A stretch of DNA of 64,000 bases from Deltaproteobacteria bacterium (lineage in GTDB: Bacteria; Myxococcota_A; Polyangia; Polyangiales; Houyiibacteriaceae), in the NCBI GenBank assembly GCA_034670305.1, contig JAXMNT010000001.1, positions 160,001 to 224,000 of the forward strand. The letters are read 5' to 3'. This document shows, piece by piece, positions 5,377 to 46,972 of the stretch. A model generated the notes under the pieces. The model worked only from the letters and a program-made list of their open reading frames with translations, ran no database searches and had not been told where the DNA came from. The position numbers and the translations under genes were made by a program. Within the stretch, counting starts at the first letter, position 1. Each line of letters opens with the position of its first letter.

Positions 5377-7476
5377 ATGGCGGAGACGGACAACCCTGGG
5401 GCCACGGCTCCGAAGTCAGACGCGCCAAAGCCAACGGACTCGCCCACTGCACCCAGCGTGACGACGGGTGTGCGCAGGCCCGGGCAGGCGCCTGCGGTGA
5501 GACGACCGGGCGCTTTCGCGGAGCCTGTGCGTCGGCCCGGGCAGTTCGCGCCCCCGGCCGCCGAGCCCGAAGCGCCGTCGGACGATCTCTACCCCGTGGT
5601 CCCGATCAGTGGCGCGGAGCTTCGCGAGCGGGCCACCGACCTGCCGGCGCTCGGCAGCTTCGGTCCCTACGACATCCTCGGCCGCATCGCCCTCGGTGGC
5701 ATGGCGGAGATCCTCTTGGCCCGGCGCTCGGATGACCCGCGGCCGATCGTCGTGAAGAAGATCCTCGCGCAGTACGCGCGCGATGATGAGTTCAGCGAGA
5801 TGTTCCTGGACGAAGCCCGCATCTGCAGTGTGCTCGACCACAAGAACATCTGCCGCTTCCTCGACAGCGGGGAGATCGACGGTCAGCTCTTCATCTCGAT
5901 GGAATGGGTCCACGGCCCGACGCTCGGCCGCATGATTCGGCGCGCCCGCAAGTCCGGTGGACTGACGATGCCGATGGTGGCCGCGCTCGTCGCGCGGGTG
6001 GCCGACGCGTTGCACTACGCACACACCGCCCGGGACGCGCAGGGCACGGTCATGGGGCTCGTGCACCGGGACGTCTCTCCACACAACATCATGGTCGCGT
6101 ACGACGGCCAAGTGAAGTTGCTCGACTTCGGTATCGCCAAAGCGGAAGTGCAATCGCACCGGACCCAGGCGGGTGTCGTGAAGGGCAAGTTCGCCTACAT
6201 GGCACCCGAGCAGTGTCGTGGCCGCGACGTCGATTTCCGGATCGACATCTTTGCGCTCGGCGTCGTGTTCTACGAAGCGCTCACGGGCAAGAGTCTGTAC
6301 CGCCGGCAGAGCGAGATGGAGACGATGCGCGCGATCGTCACCGGCCCGGTGCCTTCGTTGTTCGAGAAACTCGAGTCGGCGCCGCGCGAACTCGAAGCGA
6401 TCGTGAAGACCGCGCTGGCGAAGGATCCCGCCGACCGGTTCCCGACCGCGGCTTCGATGCGCGATGTGCTTCGCAGCTACGTCAAACGCAGCGGTGAGAA
6501 TACCGACGACGATCACATCGCGTCGGTGGTCCAGCACCTGTTCGCCGACGAGCTGCAGCGCGGCCCGAGCGTGGACTCCACGCCGTTCGGGAGTTCGTTC
6601 AACATCTCGTCCGAATCGGGTGCGCGGCCCACCGCGGTGCCGCCCGCGCAGCGCGCCGCCGCGAAGCGTGTCGACCTCGAGACCGGTGCGCCCGAACTCG
6701 AATCGCTCGGAGCGTCCCTGCCGGTCCCGGATGAGGACGTCCCCACGGCGATCGGTGCACCCCTGGCCGACGATGCATCGGCGGCCCTCGGAGATTCGCT
6801 CGCGGAGTCCCTTGCCTCGCTCGAGGCGGACGACGCGGCGGACGAAGCCGGGATCGACGTCTTGGTGGGCGCGCCCGACGAGGCGACCGCGGCGGTGTCC
6901 CCAGACCGGCTGCTCGAGAGTCTCGCGAAGAGCCGCGCCGACGAGCCGACCGCCGGCGGACCGACCAGCACGCCCAGCGAACCCGGGCCGACCAAGCGGC
7001 CACCCGCGCCCGCACCGAGTCCGGCACCTGCGCCGCGTCCAGCGCCCGCCCCGGCGGCGGCGGGTCCGCTGCTGCCGCTTCCCCCGACCGCCGCCGTGGC
7101 GTCCGTGCCGAACCTCGAGGATGTGCCCGTCGCCGCCAAGCGGTCCACGATGTCCACGATCGCGATGGGCATGGCCGTGCTCGTCGCGGTGCTGGCCGGG
7201 GTGGCCCTCGGCATGTGGGCGCTCCAGAACGACCAGACACCGGTCGCGGTGGAAGACGCGCGGGCGAGCGTCGTGGTCCGGAGCACGCCGCCTGGCGCGT
7301 CCGTGGTGGTGGGCGAACGCCCCGCGCAACCGTCGCCCGCGGTGTTCGATCGACTCATGCCAGGCACCCACGACGTCCGGGTCGAACTCACGGGACATCA
7401 GGTGTGGCGCGGCCGCGTCATGATCGAAGCCGGCCAGAGTGGGGTCGTCGACGTGAACTTGGTGCCGAACCCCTAA
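5377..7476 (+). CDS. Membrane Ser/Thr protein kinase with C-terminal PEGA domain
   Basis: GGMAEI, HRDVSPHN, DFGIAK, GKFAYMAPEQ, TM segment, VRSTPPGASV PEGA motif. Confidence 0.93.
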   Translation: MAETDNPGATAPKSDAPKPTDSPTAPSVTTGVRRPGQAPAVRRPGAFAEPVRRPGQFAPPAAEPEAPSDDLYPVVPISGAELRERATDLPALGSFGPYDILGRIALGGMAEILLARRSDDPRPIVVKKILAQYARDDEFSEMFLDEARICSVLDHKNICRFLDSGEIDGQLFISMEWVHGPTLGRMIRRARKSGGLTMPMVAALVARVADALHYAHTARDAQGTVMGLVHRDVSPHNIMVAYDGQVKLLDFGIAKAEVQSHRTQAGVVKGKFAYMAPEQCRGRDVDFRIDIFALGVVFYEALTGKSLYRRQSEMETMRAIVTGPVPSLFEKLESAPRELEAIVKTALAKDPADRFPTAASMRDVLRSYVKRSGENTDDDHIASVVQHLFADELQRGPSVDSTPFGSSFNISSESGARPTAVPPAQRAAAKRVDLETGAPELESLGASLPVPDEDVPTAIGAPLADDASAALGDSLAESLASLEADDAADEAGIDVLVGAPDEATAAVSPDRLLESLAKSRADEPTAGGPTSTPSEPGPTKRPPAPAPSPAPAPRPAPAPAAAGPLLPLPPTAAVASVPNLEDVPVAAKRSTMSTIAMGMAVLVAVLAGVALGMWALQNDQTPVAVEDARASVVVRSTPPGASVVVGERPAQPSPAVFDRLMPGTHDVRVELTGHQVWRGRVMIEAGQSGVVDVNLVPNP

Positions 7477-30607: not shown

Positions 30608-30669
30608 GCGGCGGGAGCGGCGGACCAACGACGCCTGAGCTTCGGACCAACGAGCAGCAGCGACGCGGG

Positions 30670-30748
30670 CTGGTTCTGCTGCTGCGTCTGTCGCTGCGTC
30701 TGTCGCTGCCACTGCCGCTGCGCCTGCCGCTGCGGCAGTCGCTGCCCA
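30670..30748. repeat. Degenerate (CTGNNN) hexamer array between convergent genes
   Basis: ctgctgctgcgtctgtcgctgcgtctgtcgctgccactgccg... Confidence 0.7.
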
Positions 30749-30757
30749 TGGCGCTGG

Positions 30758-35191: not shown

Positions 35192-35288
35192 GAACGAAGT
35201 CGCGGTCGCAGTGGAGCGGGGGTTCTGCGACGGAACTCCCCCCACTCCCCCACAACTCCCCCGAACTCTCCCCAAAACGGTTTCGGAT

Positions 35289-35448
35289 TCGGCAGCGGCA
35301 GTGGCAGCGGCAGCGGCAGTGGCAGTGGCACCAGCAGTCACAGCATCAGCGACAGCCCATGCTCTCCTTCGGAGTCGCGCGGTTTGTAGCCTCTCCTTCG
35401 GAAGTCGGCTCCTTCGTCCTTCGGACTCGGAGTGACCTGGGGGTGGGC
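35289..35448 (+). repeat. 160-bp direct repeat, copy 1 (hexamer array plus 5' part of leader)
   Basis: Matches 36080-36239 with two mismatches seen. Confidence 0.93.
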
Positions 35449-35626
35449 TTGCTGGCTCGGCGGGATCTTGATGGTGGCGGAGTGCTCGGGCGCGTCAAGG
35501 GTGCCTTCGGCCCCAGCCTTCGGAAGGCTGGCTTCGCCCTTGACCCGCCCTCCGCTCTCCACCGGGGGCGCACGGGGTGCGCCGCCGAGCAATGTCGCTC
35601 TGGTGTGTGGCGCGTTGGAGGCTGTG
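35384..35626 (+). ncRNA. Putative structured leader RNA, copy A
   Basis: Homologous to 40855-41100 and 46423-46657; cUUCGg loops and compensatory stem changes. Confidence 0.65.
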
Positions 35627-35938
35627 ATGATTGTTCTCGAATCTTGTTTCGTTCTCGTTGGTGAGTTGCGCGGGGTGCTGGCGGCTGTTTCTCGCCGGGA
35701 CCGTTCGCTGGGTGACCAGATGCGGCGGGCGGCTCAGTCCGTCGTTCTGAACTGCGCCGAAGCGAAGAACGCGCGGGGCAAGCGGAGCGTGGACCGCTTC
35801 TCCATCGCATACGGCGAAGCGAGTGAGCTGAAGGCGGCTCTTCGGTTGGTGCGGTTGTTCGGCTACGCGGAGGTTGGCGAGGAGGTGATGCGGCGGTGCG
35901 ACGAGGTCTGCGCGATGTTGTATCGGCTCAGTCGCTAG
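35627..35938 (+). CDS. Four-helix-bundle protein (23S rRNA IVP / Avd-like family)
   Basis: GGAGG RBS; DRSLGDQMRRAAQSVVLNCAEA and FSIAYGEASEL family motifs. Confidence 0.88.
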   Translation: MIVLESCFVLVGELRGVLAAVSRRDRSLGDQMRRAAQSVVLNCAEAKNARGKRSVDRFSIAYGEASELKAALRLVRLFGYAEVGEEVMRRCDEVCAMLYRLSR

Positions 35939-35968
35939 ACCGGCTGCGAGGCCCGCGCGAGTCGCGGG

Positions 35969-36147
35969 CCTCGGCGTCGGCAGCGCCAGGGGCAGCGGCT
36001 TTCGGCGTCGGCTTTGGCGTCGGCCTCGGCTTCGGCCTCGGCGTCGGCCTCGGCGTCGGCTTCGGCGTCGGCCTCGGCATCGGCAGCGGCAGTGGCAGTG
36101 GCAGCGGCAGTGGCAGTGGCACCAGCAGTCACAGCATCAGCGACAGC
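35969..36147. repeat. Hexamer array, (TCGGCN)n grading into (GGCAGY)n
   Basis: cggcgtcggcctcggcttcggcctcggcgt...ggcagcggcagtggcagt. Confidence 0.85.
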
Positions 36148-36239
36148 CCGTGCTCTCCTTCGGAGTCGCGCGGTTTGTAGCCTCTCCTTCGGAAGTCGGC
36201 TCCTTCGTCCTTCGGACTCGGAGTGACCTGGGGGTGGGC
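36080..36239 (+). repeat. 160-bp direct repeat, copy 2 (contains a truncated leader)
   Basis: Near-identical to 35289-35448; diverges after gggtgggc. Confidence 0.93.
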
Positions 36240-36340
36240 CTCCGTCGGATCAGGCGGCACGGCCTGCCCCAATCTGTCACTCCCCCGCCCTCGGTTTCGG
36301 CCGCCCTGACCGCGCCGCGTCAGGTGCTATCTTCCGGCCT

Positions 36341-39300
36341 ATGGCTTCACTCTTTCATGGGGGCGCGGCGCCTCGCTTCGCTGCTTCCCACGCCTTCGCG
36401 TCAAACTCGGGACGCTTGATCCCCGCGCTGCTCCTGTGCTCGTTGCTCCTCGCCTGCGGCGACGACGACACCACGCCCATCGATGCGGGCCCGAGCGACG
36501 CCGCCGATGTCGGCATCGACGTGCCGCTCCCCGACGGCCCGCGCGGCGACGTCCTGCGCATCCCGGAATCCGAGCGCCGCGAGCTGCCGCTGAACGACGA
36601 AGTCTACGTGCTTCGGACCGAGACCCACGTGCCGCACGTGTACGCCTCGAACGAACACGACCTCCGCGTCGTGCAGGGCTTCTTGATGGCCCGCGACCGC
36701 TACTTCCAGATCGAAGCCGGCCGCCGCCTCGGCCAAGGCACCCTCAGCGGTCTGGTCGGAGACGCAGCGCTCGCCGCTGACATCGGCGCCCGCACCCAGG
36801 GCATGACCCGGGTCGCCGACCGCTTGGCCGCGAGCCTCACCCCCGAACAACGCGAAGTCGTGCAGGCCTTCACCGACGGCGTGAACGCCTACGTTCGGCT
36901 CGCCAAAGCCCGCGGCATCGCGGCCCCGAGTGAGTTGACCATCGCCGCGCCCGTCTTTGGTGCGACCAGCGCCGGCGCGCTGATGGAAGAGCTCTCGCTC
37001 GAAGACCTCATCGCCTTCGCCGCGGTCCCCGTCTACCAGCTCGGCTGGGAAGCCAAGGACCTGCGCTACGCCGAAAGCGAAGCCTTCGTCGCGGACGTCT
37101 TCACCGGCGCGGAGACGGATGCGGAGCTCAGGCACGATGGTGCGGTCCAGGACATCTTCCAGAACGTCGACCCGATCAACGACATCGTCTCCGCCAGTGG
37201 CTTCGGGCTCGAAGAGGGCACGTCGTCGTTCCTGCCGAGCTTCGGCCCCCCCCGCGCCCCGGCCCGCTTCGTCGCGCCCCAGGCGATGCCGGTGGAGCGC
37301 ACCATGCTCGACCGCTTGCGCGCCCAGACGGACCGCTTCGAACACACCCTGCGTGGTCCGGTCGACGGAGACTTCGGGTCCAACGCCTGGGCCGTCGATG
37401 GCGCGCACTCGGAAGGCGGCGCAGCGCTCTTGGCCGGCGACGGACACCTCCCGCTCTCGATCGCGCCGCTCTTCTACCAGCTCGGTCTCGACACCAGCGT
37501 CTTCGGCGAAGGCGCCGACAACGACATCACCTTGATGGGCCTCTTCTTCGCCGGCATCCCGCACATGGCGGTCGGCACCAACGGCCGCGTCGCGTGGTCG
37601 CAGACTTACCTGCGCGGCGACGTCACCGACTGGTACGCCGAGGAGCTCGTGCTCGACGCCGAGGGCATGCCGGTGGCGACCCGTTTCGAGGGCAGCGACG
37701 AACCGCTCGTGCGCATCGAGGAGTCCTACGAGATCCGCAACGTGCCGGGCCTCGGCAGCGTCGGCCGCACCGAGACCATCGCCCGCTTCGAGACCTTCGA
37801 CGGCCGGCCGATCACCGCGATCGAAGGCCGCCCCGCCACCGCGGACACCGTGCCCGGCGACGGCGAGTCGCTCGTGAACATCGGCGGCGAATACGTCATC
37901 CCGGAGGACGTCGACGAAGACGGAACCATCAGCGCGGTCAGCTTCGACTTCGCGGGCTTCGACGTCTCCAACATCCTGCGCGCGCTCGAAGGCTTCAACG
38001 ACTCGAACACCGTCACCGACTTCCGCAACGCCACCCGCGAGCTCGTCACCTACGCGCAGAACCTGGTCGCGGCCGACATCGAAGGCGACGTCTACTACGG
38101 CAGCTACAACGCCATCCCCACCCGCGAGTACCTGGAGCGCACCGAAGCGGGCGGCCCGTGGACCCCTGGATCCGATCCGCGCAGCTTGCTCGACGGCACC
38201 CGCTACCGCGGCTTCGAGATCGTGCTCGACGAAAACGGCATGCCGGACGAGTCGATGTGCGCAGGCGATACCTACCGCTGCCTCGTGCCGTTCGATGAGT
38301 GGCCCGCCGCGCTCTCGCCCGACCGCGGCTTCGTGCTGACCGCGAACCACGACATCGCCAACATCACCACCGACGGCGACATCTTCGACGACCCGTACTA
38401 CCTCGGCGGCGCCTGGAACAACGGCTTCCGTGGCGCGTCGATCACCGCGGGCATCGTCGCGCTCGGCACCGGCGCGACCGCGGCGGCGATGAGCGAGCTG
38501 CAGAACGACCACCACTCCGTGCTCGGGCCGCTCTTCGTGCCCTACCTGCTCGAAGCGATCGACGAAGGCCAGCGGCTCGCTGCCGAAGAAGCGATCACGC
38601 CTTCCGAGATGCGGCTGCTCGCGATTTACACCGCCAACCAAGCCGCGCTCGATGAAGTCGAGACCCGGCTGGCCGCGTGGGTGGCCGGCGGCGCCGAAGC
38701 GGCGTCGGGTGTGGACACCTTCTACCACTCCGCCGATGGCGAAGCGGACGACAGCGTGGCGACCATGATCTTCAACGAGTGGTGGAAGAAGGTCATCGCC
38801 GCGACGTTCGAAGACGAAGGCATGGCGCCCGCGTTCGGGCCCGACGTCTCCACCAGCATCACCCGCGCGATGTACGACCTCTACCGCGGCCGCGGCGCCG
38901 GCAACCCCGCGGGGCTGCAGTCCTGGAACGTAGCGACGTCGGAGTCGGTCTTCTTCGACGACCTCGGCACGGTGGAAGTCGAGTCGAGCCACGAAGTCTC
39001 GCTCTCCGCGCTGACGACCGCGCTCGCCGCGCTCTCGGCCGACCCCGATCCCGAAGTGCCGGGCGTCGGCGGCTTTGGTTCCACGGACATGGACGACTGG
39101 CGCTGGGGCCTGCGTCACCTCGTCAAATTCGAGTCCCTGGTCGCGACCTTCGTCGGCACCGACCCGGCCTTTGCGCTCTTGGCCAACGGCTTCTCGATCA
39201 CCCCCGAGACCCTGCCGCTCGCCGAGGACCTCGAGGAGACCGACCCGCGCGCGACCCTTCCGTGGTTCCCGCGCCCGGGCGACCTCTTCAACGTCGACGC

Positions 39301-40744: not shown

Positions 40745-40855
40745 AGAAGCAGCTGCAGACGCGGTGGCACAGCAGAAGCAGCGGCAGAAGCAGCGACAGA
40801 AGCAGCGGCAGGAGCAGCGACAGCGGCAGAAGCAGCGACAGCGGCGGAAGCAGCT
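40745..40855. repeat. Degenerate (CAGCRG/CAGAAG) hexamer array
   Basis: cagcagaagcagcggcagaagcagcgacagaagcagcggcagg... Confidence 0.8.
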
Positions 40856-41100
40856 GTAGCCTCTTCCTTCGGAAAGTCGGCTCCTTGCAATCCTTTGGAT
40901 TTTGGGAACACCCCAATTGGTTGGGCTTGCTGGCTCGGCGGCAGATTGATGGTGGCGGAGTGCTCGCCTGCGTCAAGGGTGGCCTTCGGCCCCCAGCCGA
41001 TGCGGCTGGCTTCGCCCTGGACCCAGGCTCCGCTCTCCACCGGGGGCGCTCCGCGCCGCCGAGCAATGTCGCTCTGGTGTTTGGCGCGTTGGAGGTCCTG
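40855..41100 (+). ncRNA. Putative structured leader RNA, copy B
   Basis: Colinear with 35384-35626 through the RBS and ATGATTGTTCTC. Confidence 0.65.
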
Positions 41101-41190
41101 ATGATTGTTCTCATCCGCTCGTACGCCGAAGGTGAGGGCGCCCGAGAGGTCTACCGGGACATCGCCGGCTTCCTGCTCGACTCGCGCTGA
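41101..41190 (+). pseudogene. Four-helix-bundle gene truncated after MIVL and joined to unrelated sequence (29-codon ORF)
   Basis: First 12 nt identical to 35627-35638, then homology is lost. Confidence 0.55.
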
Positions 41191-45940: not shown

Positions 45941-46410
45941 TGTTGCTGTTCGCTGTTCGCTGTTGCGGTTGCTGACTCTGACGCTGACGCTGACGCTGAC
46001 GCTGTTGCTGATTCTGATTCTGATTCTGATTCTGACTCTGATTCTGACTCTGATTCTGATTCTGACGTCGCAGCCGAAGCCGAACCCGAAGCCGAAGCCA
46101 CATCCGAATCCGAATCCAAAGCCGACGCCGAAGCCGACGCCGAAGCCGAAGCCGAAGCAGACGCCGAAGCAGACGCCGAAGCCGATTCCGCCACCACGAC
46201 CCCCACCGCTACCGCGACCCCCACCGCTACCGCGACCCCCACCGCTACCGCGACCCCCACCGCTACCGCTACGCGACCCCCACCGCTACCGCGACCCCTA
46301 CCGCTACCGCTACCGCTACCGCGACCGCCTCCGCCTCCGCTTCCGCTTCCGCTTCCGCGACCGCTTCCGCTTCCGCGACCGCTTCCGCGACCGCTCCGCT
46401 TCCGCGACCA
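45941..46410. repeat. ~470-bp compound hexamer/18-mer microsatellite
   Basis: Successive blocks (CTGACG)n, (CTGATT)n, (CCGAAG/CCGACG)n, (CCGCTACCGCGACCCCCA)n, (CCGCTT)n. Confidence 0.9.
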
Positions 46411-46422
46411 GGACCGCACCGC

Positions 46423-46657
46423 TTGTAGCCTCTCCTTCGGAGTCGGCCTCATCCTCTCCTTCGGAATCGGATTCGGGTCCGATGGGGCTGGGGTTGTGCC
46501 CGGCGGGAGGTCAAGCGTGTCGTCTGGCGTGCCAGGCCTCAAGGGGGCCTACGGCCCGGCGGGATGCCCGCCGCTTCCTTGACCCCTGACCCGCCAGACG
46601 ACGGCGGCCTGCGGCCGCCGGGCATGTCGCTCGGTCGTCGTCACACAGGGGTCTCCG
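46423..46657 (+). ncRNA. Putative structured leader RNA, copy C (diverged)
   Basis: Starts ttgtagcctctccttcgga like copy A; same stem order with a different sequence; keeps tcaaggg, ccttgac and atgtcgctc. Confidence 0.6.
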
Positions 46658-46972
46658 ATGATCGTTCTTCAAACTTCCTTCGAACTCGTGCGTTCGCTGC
46701 GCGCTCAGGTACTGCCGCTCGTACGCAAACACGACGCTTCGCTAGCGTCACAGATGCAGCGCGCGGCGCAGTCCGTGGTTCTGAACATCGCAGAGGCTCG
46801 GCAGGCGCGAGGACTTCGTTGTCATGACAAGTTCTCGATTGCCTACGGAGAGTGCAGCGAGCTGAAGGCTGCGATTCAGCTCGCTGAGGTCTTTGGGTAC
46901 ATCGACCTGGACGCGACGCTCCTCGATCGGTGCGACTACGTCTGCGCGATGCTGTACAAGCTCAGCCGTTGA
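46658..46972 (+). CDS. Four-helix-bundle protein (23S rRNA IVP / Avd-like), paralog of 35627-35938
   Basis: MIVL start, SLASQMQRAAQSVVLNIAEA, FSIAYGECSELKAA, RCDYVCAMLYKLSR. Confidence 0.9.
   Translation: MIVLQTSFELVRSLRAQVLPLVRKHDASLASQMQRAAQSVVLNIAEARQARGLRCHDKFSIAYGECSELKAAIQLAEVFGYIDLDATLLDRCDYVCAMLYKLSR

Follow-up and report, generated by a model that had tools for sequence, protein, structure and literature searches.

A covariation-supported leader RNA tied to four-helix-bundle protein genes of the PF05635 family in a Polyangiales bacterium

The 64,000-nucleotide (nt) stretch of DNA considered here, referred to below as the window, comes from contig JAXMNT010000001.1 (positions 160,001 to 224,000) of the Deltaproteobacteria bacterium assembly GCA_034670305.1. 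Its positions 35384-35626 raise the question of what 243 nt rich in potential stems are doing directly in front of a small gene. A first-pass annotation, made from the sequence of the window, had proposed a conserved multi-stem fold that is under selection, probably as RNA, and that belongs to no named family. The stretch is the 5' leader of a compact, self-contained gene cassette. The cassette consists, in this order, of a 5' module, a fold of ~165-195 nt, a Shine-Dalgarno (SD) sequence with an ATG, a gene for a four-helix-bundle (4HB) protein of 103-104 amino acids (aa) and a GC-rich hairpin. The first-pass annotation had missed that the gene behind the leader belongs to the PF05635 four-helix-bundle family and that both together form a cassette with ~40 copies. 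That the leader is a real, conserved RNA structure linked to this 4HB gene family is very probable. The leader and the gene of the cassette called copy A are composed as follows.

35451-35629, plus strand: leader core of copy A (match to covariance model R1, 152.6 bits, C1:195451-195629)
35455-35461 with 35584-35590, plus strand: helix P1
35476-35485 with 35554-35563, plus strand: helix P2a
35488-35492 with 35546-35550, plus strand: helix P2b
35494-35501 with 35537-35544, plus strand: helix P2c
35503-35505 with 35509-35511, plus strand: helix P3
35513-35520 with 35524-35531, plus strand: helix P4
35567-35573 with 35577-35583, plus strand: hairpin P5
35617-35621, plus strand: SD sequence GGAGG
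35627-35629, plus strand: start codon ATG
35627-35938, plus strand: 4HB protein gene, type A, 103 aa (Pfam PF05635, E = 6.3e-14; TIGR02436, E = 1e-15)

The fold was derived from RNAalifold applied to each cassette subtype, from a joint alignment (A2, see below) and from minimum free energy (MFE) predictions on single sequences, all of which agree. Helix P1, 7 bp long, closes a three-way junction that holds the long interrupted helix P2 and the hairpin P5. Its pairs are GCUCGGC/GCCGAGC in subtype A, GCCCGGC/GCCGGGC in subtype C and GCCCGA/UCGGGC in subtype D. The joining region J1/2 has ~12 nt, of which an A and a GU are conserved. P2a comprises 10-11 bp, the sequence of which is wholly different among A, C and D, P2b is a variable helix of ~5 bp, and P2c (UCAAGG/CCUUGA) is nearly invariant. 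At its tip, P2 opens into a multiloop from which P3 (GGCC-UUC-GGCC) and a variable P4 project, joined in type D by one more hairpin. The conserved joining regions and internal loops are GUGCUCGG / CCUGCGCGC, together with J1/2 and its A..GU. A tail of ~40 nt, often with a small hairpin, leads to the ATG, and the SD motif GGAG lies 6-8 nt before it.

Two further copies of the leader in the window, B and C, permit a direct comparison.

40855-41112, plus strand: copy B, 5' module and full leader core (R1 match 40929-41103, C1:200929-201103, 141.9 bits)
46423-46660, plus strand: copy C, 5' module and type-C leader core (R1 match 46494-46660, 132.3 bits)
46658-46972, plus strand: 4HB protein gene, type C, 104 aa (PF05635, E = 1.4e-15; TIGR02436, E = 1.8e-16)

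The stem GGGCG (35488-35492) / CGCCC (35546-35550) of copy A is present in the window with these letters at these coordinates, and in copy B it is replaced by GCCTG (40966-40970) / CAGGC (41024-41028), that is, by three paired swaps (G-C to C-G, G-C to C-G and C-G to U-A), just as the first-pass annotation had it. The inner stem GTCAAGGG (35494-35501) / CCCTTGAC (35537-35544) and the hairpins that it encloses do recur in all three copies, as had been claimed, but copy B has one mismatch because its 3' arm reads CCCTGGAC. The outer stem of copy C, TCGTCTGGCG (46520-46529) / CGCCAGACGA (46592-46601), is perfect. It had been regarded as new, which it is not: a homologue exists in copy A, namely GGCGGAGTGC (35476-35485) / GCTCTCCACC (35554-35563), with two mismatches in alignment A2.

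The extra-stable cUUCGg tetraloops that had also been proposed had to be given up. The motif CTTCGG occurs four times in 35384-35626, and it is also a rotation of this genome's commonest hexamer-array unit. The register that keeps the P3 and P4 stems gives 3-nt loops (UUC, UGC, UAC, CGG), which vary among the copies, and the hairpins supported by covariation, GCC-UUC-GGC, GGCC-UAC/UGC-GGCC and CAGCCUU-CGG-AAGGCUG, likewise have 3-nt loops. Since the loops differ between copies and fall in a 3-nt register, a cUUCGg tetraloop is unsupported. The CUUCGG hairpins of the 5' module, if read in the tetraloop register, have a C·A mismatch beside the closing pair.

Whether the fold exceeds what chance would produce was judged from three alignments, each compared with a control in which the 3' partners were slid by 1-3 columns. 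Alignment A2 was made from sequence only and contains 31 copies from this genome (29 distinct) with a 37-pair structure. In A2, 91.9% of the cells are paired, compared to 34-42% in the slid controls; both sides have changed at 15 of the 37 pairs, compared to 3-7, and the covariation score is 0.275, compared to at most 0.093. Three subtypes represent few independent events, and sequences from other genomes were therefore added. The resulting alignment A6, made by MAFFT only, comprises 44 P2 cores, taken from this genome and from over a dozen further genomes, and is evaluated on a P2 of 25 pairs. Paired cells amount to 87.9% (36-44% when slid), both-side changes occur at 19 of the 25 pairs (9-12 when slid), and the 44 sequences contain 26 distinct versions of P2a (its 7-bp outer part) and 24 of P2b. 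RNAalifold predicts 17 pairs on A6, all of them within the 25-pair P2, and 15 of the 17 are double-changed. In the model-fitted alignment A4 (80 matches), which leans towards the covariance model, 92.2% of the cells are paired (33-44% when slid) and 33 of the 37 pairs are double-changed.

The covariance model and the larger alignments, which the first-pass annotation had named as checks, gave strong covariation, the A6 score being 0.407 against at most 0.099 in the slid controls. Its central claim, a structure under selection and probably RNA, is borne out by compensatory changes across three paralogous subtypes and in other genomes of several families and orders. The plus strand of 35384-35626 has an MFE of -128.2 kcal/mol (z = -2.58), and 2 of 200 shuffled sequences are as stable; folding energy alone is weak evidence because the DNA has ~70% G+C. 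Judged from these alignments, it is the covariation and not the modest folding energy that is decisive for a structure beyond chance.

Which strand carries the structure is a separate question, and the wobble pairs provide some clues to it. At A6 columns 5/125 a U·G is conserved on the plus strand in 32 of 41 cells, and columns 14/117 have UG in 25 and GC in 11 of 44 sequences. The SD sequence and ATG lie directly 3' of the fold at a fixed distance. A DNA-level structure (a cruciform or single-stranded hairpins) or an antisense RNA of the minus strand would also agree with pairs that are nearly all Watson-Crick, so that either strand folds, and two observations speak against the plus strand. 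The minus strand folds better relative to shuffles (z = -4.87 vs -2.58), and this genome has only 7 G·U cells compared to 29 A·C cells; 18 of the latter go back to one C·A site inherited within type A, a mismatch which in those 18 copies would be G·U on the minus strand. However, the two conserved U·G pairs of the plus strand would turn into A·C mismatches in DNA or on the minus strand, the other genomes have 57 G·U compared to 10 A·C cells, and the orientation of the fold to the open reading frame (ORF) is invariant. On balance, the fold appears to act as RNA of the plus (mRNA) strand, and a DNA-level or antisense origin is very improbable.

The leader could in principle be translated, as the ORF 35432-35938 runs in frame through it into the 4HB gene. 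An N-terminal protein extension over the leader was ruled out: a 4-nt insertion or deletion in the P5 loop of 5 of the 12 A-type copies, together with an upstream ORF in another frame in copy C, indicates that the leader is not coding.

The cassette is a prominent family in its genome. The source assembly (G000) comprises 7.93 Mb in 105 contigs and has 47 matches to PF05635, of which 39 exceed the Pfam cut-off. A leader and a recognisable start motif accompany 35 of the 47 matches, and 33 of these 35 ORFs are intact. They fall into subtypes A (n = 14, MIVLE…), C (n = 8, MIVLQ…) and D (n = 13, MLVFDKS…). Covariance model R1, built from 31 copies, finds 40 places in this genome at E <= 0.01. Three of its matches have no intact adjoining gene (C1:200929, which is copy B, C18:54470 and C22:10038), and C54:5127 and C19:96542 are further matches. 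Copy B is a gene-less relic, which retains just the first 12 nt of the ORF (BLAST homology stops at query position 369).

Within subtypes, the paralogous ORFs have a ratio of non-synonymous to synonymous substitution rates (dN/dS) of 0.06-0.13 at dS of 0.43-0.63, and the distance between leader cores, 0.08-0.11, is 14-22% of the dS of the adjoining ORF, a divergence 5-7 times slower than at synonymous sites. By these measures the copies are old, the proteins are under purifying selection and the constraint on the leader roughly equals that on non-synonymous sites.

Some leaders have diverged from the common fold. One copy, C10:57113-57360, has an insertion of ~85 nt exactly within the P3 loop. 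In C28:6824-6988 with 7039-7134 and in C68:36053-36214 with 36265-36363, insertions of ~70 nt interrupt the 5' strand of P2a directly after GGUGGC. The ORFs behind all three insertion-bearing leaders are intact. Two type-C leaders, C35:10979-11152 and C10:16234-16408, have the P4 hairpin sequence of type A (CCAGCCUUCGGAAGGCUGG), which suggests recombination or gene conversion between cassette subtypes. Other PF05635 genes of the same genome (C14:16486-16722, C15:131727-131960, C1:298705-298866, C5:239589-239735 and C63:24547-24714) have a different conserved upstream sequence with a hairpin of its own, which the leader models do not match.

The proteins encoded by the cassettes are basic, with a median isoelectric point of 8.4-9.4. 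Those of the window score 52.5 and 57.9 bits with PF05635 (cut-off 33.8), and scores with TIGR02436, the four helix bundle protein family, are 57.9, 60.3 and 44.4 bits (cut-off 24). The closest solved relative is PDB entry 2GSC (E = 1.5e-4), deposited with five chains. Searches of the three protein types against the defence and phage families of PADLOC and PHROGs gave no matches.

The leader is found in other genomes as well. R1 has matches in 8 of 87 other genomes of the family and in 12 of 150 sampled genomes of the order. A core-only model, R2, was used for wider searches and has matches in 10 of 150 sampled genomes of the class, one with at least 12 copies, and in 3 of 150 sampled genomes of the phylum, one of which belongs to the same family as the window genome. 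All these counts are lower bounds, as 18-31 candidates were scored per genome with strict filters. A scan for relatives with a single protein yielded 3 loci only. A 4HB ORF lies just 3' of the RNA match in 18 of 23 loci of relatives and in 14 of 26 further loci, as detected with a profile hidden Markov model built from the proteins of this genome alone, which may thus miss distant 4HB genes.

The leader does not correspond to any described family in Rfam 15. None of its 4227 models reaches its gathering score anywhere in the 64-kb window, so that the first-pass annotation was right not to name a family. With the cut-off relaxed to E <= 10, 35250-35950 yields three matches, none of which comes near its threshold: mir-1224 (17.3 bits vs 105), raiA-hairpin (15.2 vs 43.7) and isrG (9.8 vs 100). 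No description of a structured leader of PF05635/TIGR02436 genes was found in the full-text literature, a scope outside which supplements and most subscription journals fall. As an RNA motif the leader is new, but its kind is familiar, namely a covariation-supported leader with a fixed gene association. The orphan structured-RNA motifs of the Weinberg/Breaker type in Rfam were found by comparative genomics. Like them, the leader is supported by covariation, has a fixed gene association and is unassigned biochemically; unlike them, it matches none of the Rfam 15 models.

What could such a leader do? The leaders of ribosomal proteins, for example L1, S15 and L10, are autoregulatory leaders of small RNA-binding proteins. 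The present leader resembles them in being a structured 5' untranslated region directly before the SD sequence and start of a small basic protein, and in having helices that covary around conserved internal loops, as is expected of a protein-binding site. It differs from them in that the protein is not ribosomal, there are ~40 paralogous leader-gene units per genome, and binding is here a proposal.

A second parallel is provided by diversity-generating retroelements (DGRs). According to a preprint (bioRxiv 10.1101/2023.10.23.563531), the DGR protein Avd is a positively charged pentameric barrel, and the DGR RNA has stem-loops that bind it. The avd-TR-Sp region of Bordetella phage BPP-1 and the cassette share a basic, Avd-like PF05635 protein and a structured non-coding RNA beside its gene. 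The two differ in that the cassette RNA is upstream of the gene and the DGR RNA downstream, in the absence of sequence or Rfam similarity, and in the lack of an adjacent reverse transcriptase. The possibility that the cassettes themselves are DGRs was rejected: none of the three PF00078 genes of this genome adjoins a cassette, the nearest being ~5.2 kb away (on C67), although template-repeat/variable-repeat pairs were not searched for. These reverse-transcriptase genes are located at C23:86418-87011, C10:168437-169069 and C67:18832-19467.

The basic nature of the proteins, their kinship with Avd and the occurrence of variable helices around conserved internal loops and P2c favour binding by the cassette's own product. 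The fold would then be a cis-acting protein-binding site on the mRNA leader, which the 4HB protein might bind much as Avd binds the DGR RNA stem-loops. Binding would set the translation or stability of the protein's own mRNA (autoregulation), or would build a protein-RNA particle. We infer both the binding and its effect, and autoregulation or particle assembly through the cassette's own basic protein is our leading reading, though somewhat less likely than not.

A number of observations weigh against this reading. The fold does not sequester the SD sequence in a consistent manner, and there is thus no clear sign of a simple mechanism by occlusion. The leader and protein subtypes co-occur, but duplication of whole cassettes suffices as an explanation. 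PF05635 occurs in 62 of the 87 family genomes and the RNA model in 8, which means that the leader marks one clade of PF05635 genes only. Furthermore, in 12 of the 26 further loci no 4HB gene was detected beside the P2 core (one of the 12 meets a contig end), and such gene-less loci, together with copy B, indicate that the RNA can persist alone. These core-only loci and the gene-less matches on C1, C18 and C22 would also be accounted for if the element were an independent small RNA or repeat that is often situated beside 4HB genes and acts apart from the mRNA. However, the distance to the SD/ATG (~40 nt) and the orientation are constant in the great majority of full-length matches, no terminator-like site separates P1 from the SD in copies A and C, and the orphans fit decay, given the ORF remnant in copy B. 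An independent RNA is therefore quite improbable.

The junction itself suggests another possibility, a riboswitch-like sensor, in which the junction and its internal loops would control the 4HB gene by binding an ion or small molecule or by sensing another signal. A complex multi-stem junction with covarying helices and conserved joining regions and internal loops would suit such a device, and alternative pairings exist: in type A the 3' strand of P1 (GAGC) can pair with a downstream GCUC, and in type C a CCGCC can pair with either of two GGCGG segments. Nevertheless, the sole associated gene encodes a small protein of unassigned function, neither metabolic nor transport-related, no terminator or SD-sequestering platform is conserved across subtypes and genomes, and ~40 copies per genome would be unusual. 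A sensor of this type is improbable, if slightly less so than an independent RNA.

The remaining elements of cassette A and its surroundings bear on how the cassettes spread.

35279-35356, plus strand: period-6 tandem array (GGCAGY)n upstream of cassette A (repeat families D2, D5 and D7; found by TRF, Tandem Repeats Finder, at genome position C1:195290-195338)
35357-35450, plus strand: 5' module of A/C-type cassettes (CCCATGCTCTCCTTCGGAGTCGCGCGGTTT-GTAGCCTCTCC...) with small CUUCGG hairpins (from the alignment)
35947-35973, plus strand: GC-rich 11-bp hairpin, 9 nt past the stop codon, terminator-like, no U tract
35967-36147, plus strand: period-6 arrays (GGCNTC)n and then (GGCAGY)n downstream of cassette A (repeat families D2 and D5-D8)
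36069-36239, plus strand: second array end and 5' module, no core, before the penicillin amidase gene (D9; BLAST, C1:196074-196239)

The A- and C-type units open with a common 5' module (…GTAGCCTCTCCTTCGGA…), and the 8-mer GTAGCCTC followed by the 5' module is essentially confined to A/C-type cassettes and their remnants. A hairpin comparable to that at 35947-35973 follows the stop codon in most of the copies listed, with a sequence that differs by subtype. A direct repeat of 171 nt (35278-35448 / 36069-36239, 96% identical) consists of the end of a hexamer array and the 5' module. Period-6 arrays occupy 30668-30757, 35279-35356, 35967-36147, 40759-40866 and 45946-46410 of the window. The neighbouring genes in the window are unrelated and of a housekeeping type (tetratricopeptide repeat protein, penicillin amidase, PhoH, phosphodiesterase and glycosyltransferase). 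A consensus scan, uninformative for this organism, found no promoter-like sites around copies A and C and no terminator-like sites between their folds and ORFs. Among the sequencing runs listed, no RNA run contains the stretch; the four runs with most of it are listed as probably DNA (contigs).

The cassettes are intergenic. The upstream gene has the same orientation in 21 cases and the opposite in 8, and the downstream gene the same in 15 and the opposite in 18. The 8 copies with a divergent upstream gene, at least, need a promoter of their own. Period-6n tracts number 2,399 genome-wide (TRF, merged), 237 kb in total, and 800 of them reach 100 bp or more; the units seen most often are AAGCCG, with 442 arrays (75 kb), and AAGGGC, with 450. 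Hexamer arrays are thus not specific to the cassettes. An array lies 100-500 nt upstream in 32 of 35 cassettes. Of 33 loci in other genomes, 31 have a period-6n array no more than ~320 nt 5' of the leader, one has a period-7 array and one begins at a contig end. In this genome, 7 of 33 copies have flanks that match each other directly over 22-50 nt. Inverted complementarity between the flanks of the 33 copies does not exceed an exact match of 15 nt and is mostly 0-11 nt.

This setting raises the possibility that the fold is a handle for processing or propagation, on which an RNase, recombinase or reverse transcriptase would act in trans to excise, stabilise or copy the cassette RNA. Such a handle would explain the ~40 dispersed copies within hexamer-repeat tracts. 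The cassettes lie in either orientation relative to their neighbours, several are placed inside an array of one unit, and the direct flank matches, the upstream arrays in other genomes and the gene-less relics all point in the same direction, as does a set of weak P2-like matches directly behind a transposase ORF in another genome (G361, see below). However, the age of the copies, as measured by dS, and the purifying selection on each ORF are unlike a recent burst, the assembly lacks a PF02371 transposase, its reverse-transcriptase genes are not adjacent to cassettes, and the flanks are without inverted complementarity in this genome. A handle acted on in trans is unlikely, but less so than the sensor or the independent RNA; it is own-product binding that is preferred here.

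According to a published account (PMC4990558), the 23S rRNA intervening sequences (IVSs) of Coxiella and Leptospira have a PF05635 (S23p) ORF in a structured, selfish-looking RNA, and they share with the cassettes a large number of copies and gene-less relics. The cassettes differ from them in not being within an rRNA gene, in lacking an ORF-enclosing stem and in having the fold wholly upstream of the ORF. Membership in this class was rejected, because the cassettes lie between protein-coding genes and there is no rRNA in the window. The lack of inverted flank matches implies that an IVS-like enclosing stem is absent in this genome. In another genome, G033 (loci L039, L126 and L143), the flanking arrays are reverse complements of each other (CGCGTCTGCGTT-type vs ACGCAGACGCGA-type). 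These inverted arrays could form a stem that encloses the cassette, unlike the situation in the window genome.

The transposase-associated matches require a separate description. IS110/IS1111 insertion sequences have non-coding bridge or seek RNAs. In the genome G361 the P2 core has weak matches of 83 nt (38.9 bits, E = 5e-4), which number at least 12, are nearly identical and lie inside a 1240-bp repeat, and these P2-like matches directly follow an ORF for an IS110-family transposase (PF02371; loci L168, L171-L174, L176, L178 and L180). G361 contributes 3 of the 12 gene-less loci, and in L171 an IS1380-type transposase gene comes next. The likeness to IS110/IS1111 RNAs consists in the position of the weak P2-like match within an IS110-family element, in its 3' non-coding part. 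The difference is that the variable segments of the leader pair with each other and are not in open guide loops. No PF02371 gene was found in the window assembly. The resemblance in G361 may reflect a real link to IS110 non-coding RNAs or may be due to chance.

A more speculative reading, to which only a small chance of being right is given, combines these lines. A free-standing Avd-like protein would have the leader as its dedicated RNA partner, the two would form a self-maintaining ribonucleoprotein cassette, and the fold would be the handle for copying and insertion into hexamer tracts. If true, this would link the 23S rRNA intervening sequences, the Avd of DGRs, short-period arrays and perhaps the guide RNAs of the IS110 type, and would make these elements relatives of one ancient RNA-guided mobile system.

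The motif itself, which has no entry in Rfam, is ~170 nt long, contains a three-way and a multi-way junction and shows dozens of compensatory changes that are independent of one another. Its setting is unusual, with ~40 paralogous cassettes, each under purifying selection, amid roughly 2,400 hexamer-repeat tracts. The PF05635/TIGR02436 proteins (S23p, IVS protein, Avd) are very widespread and often multicopy, and to our knowledge they have no known function outside DGRs. A covariation-supported fold in front of one clade of PF05635 genes is a concrete candidate for their ligand, and with such a candidate RNA in hand, the question of what PF05635 proteins bind becomes testable at the bench.

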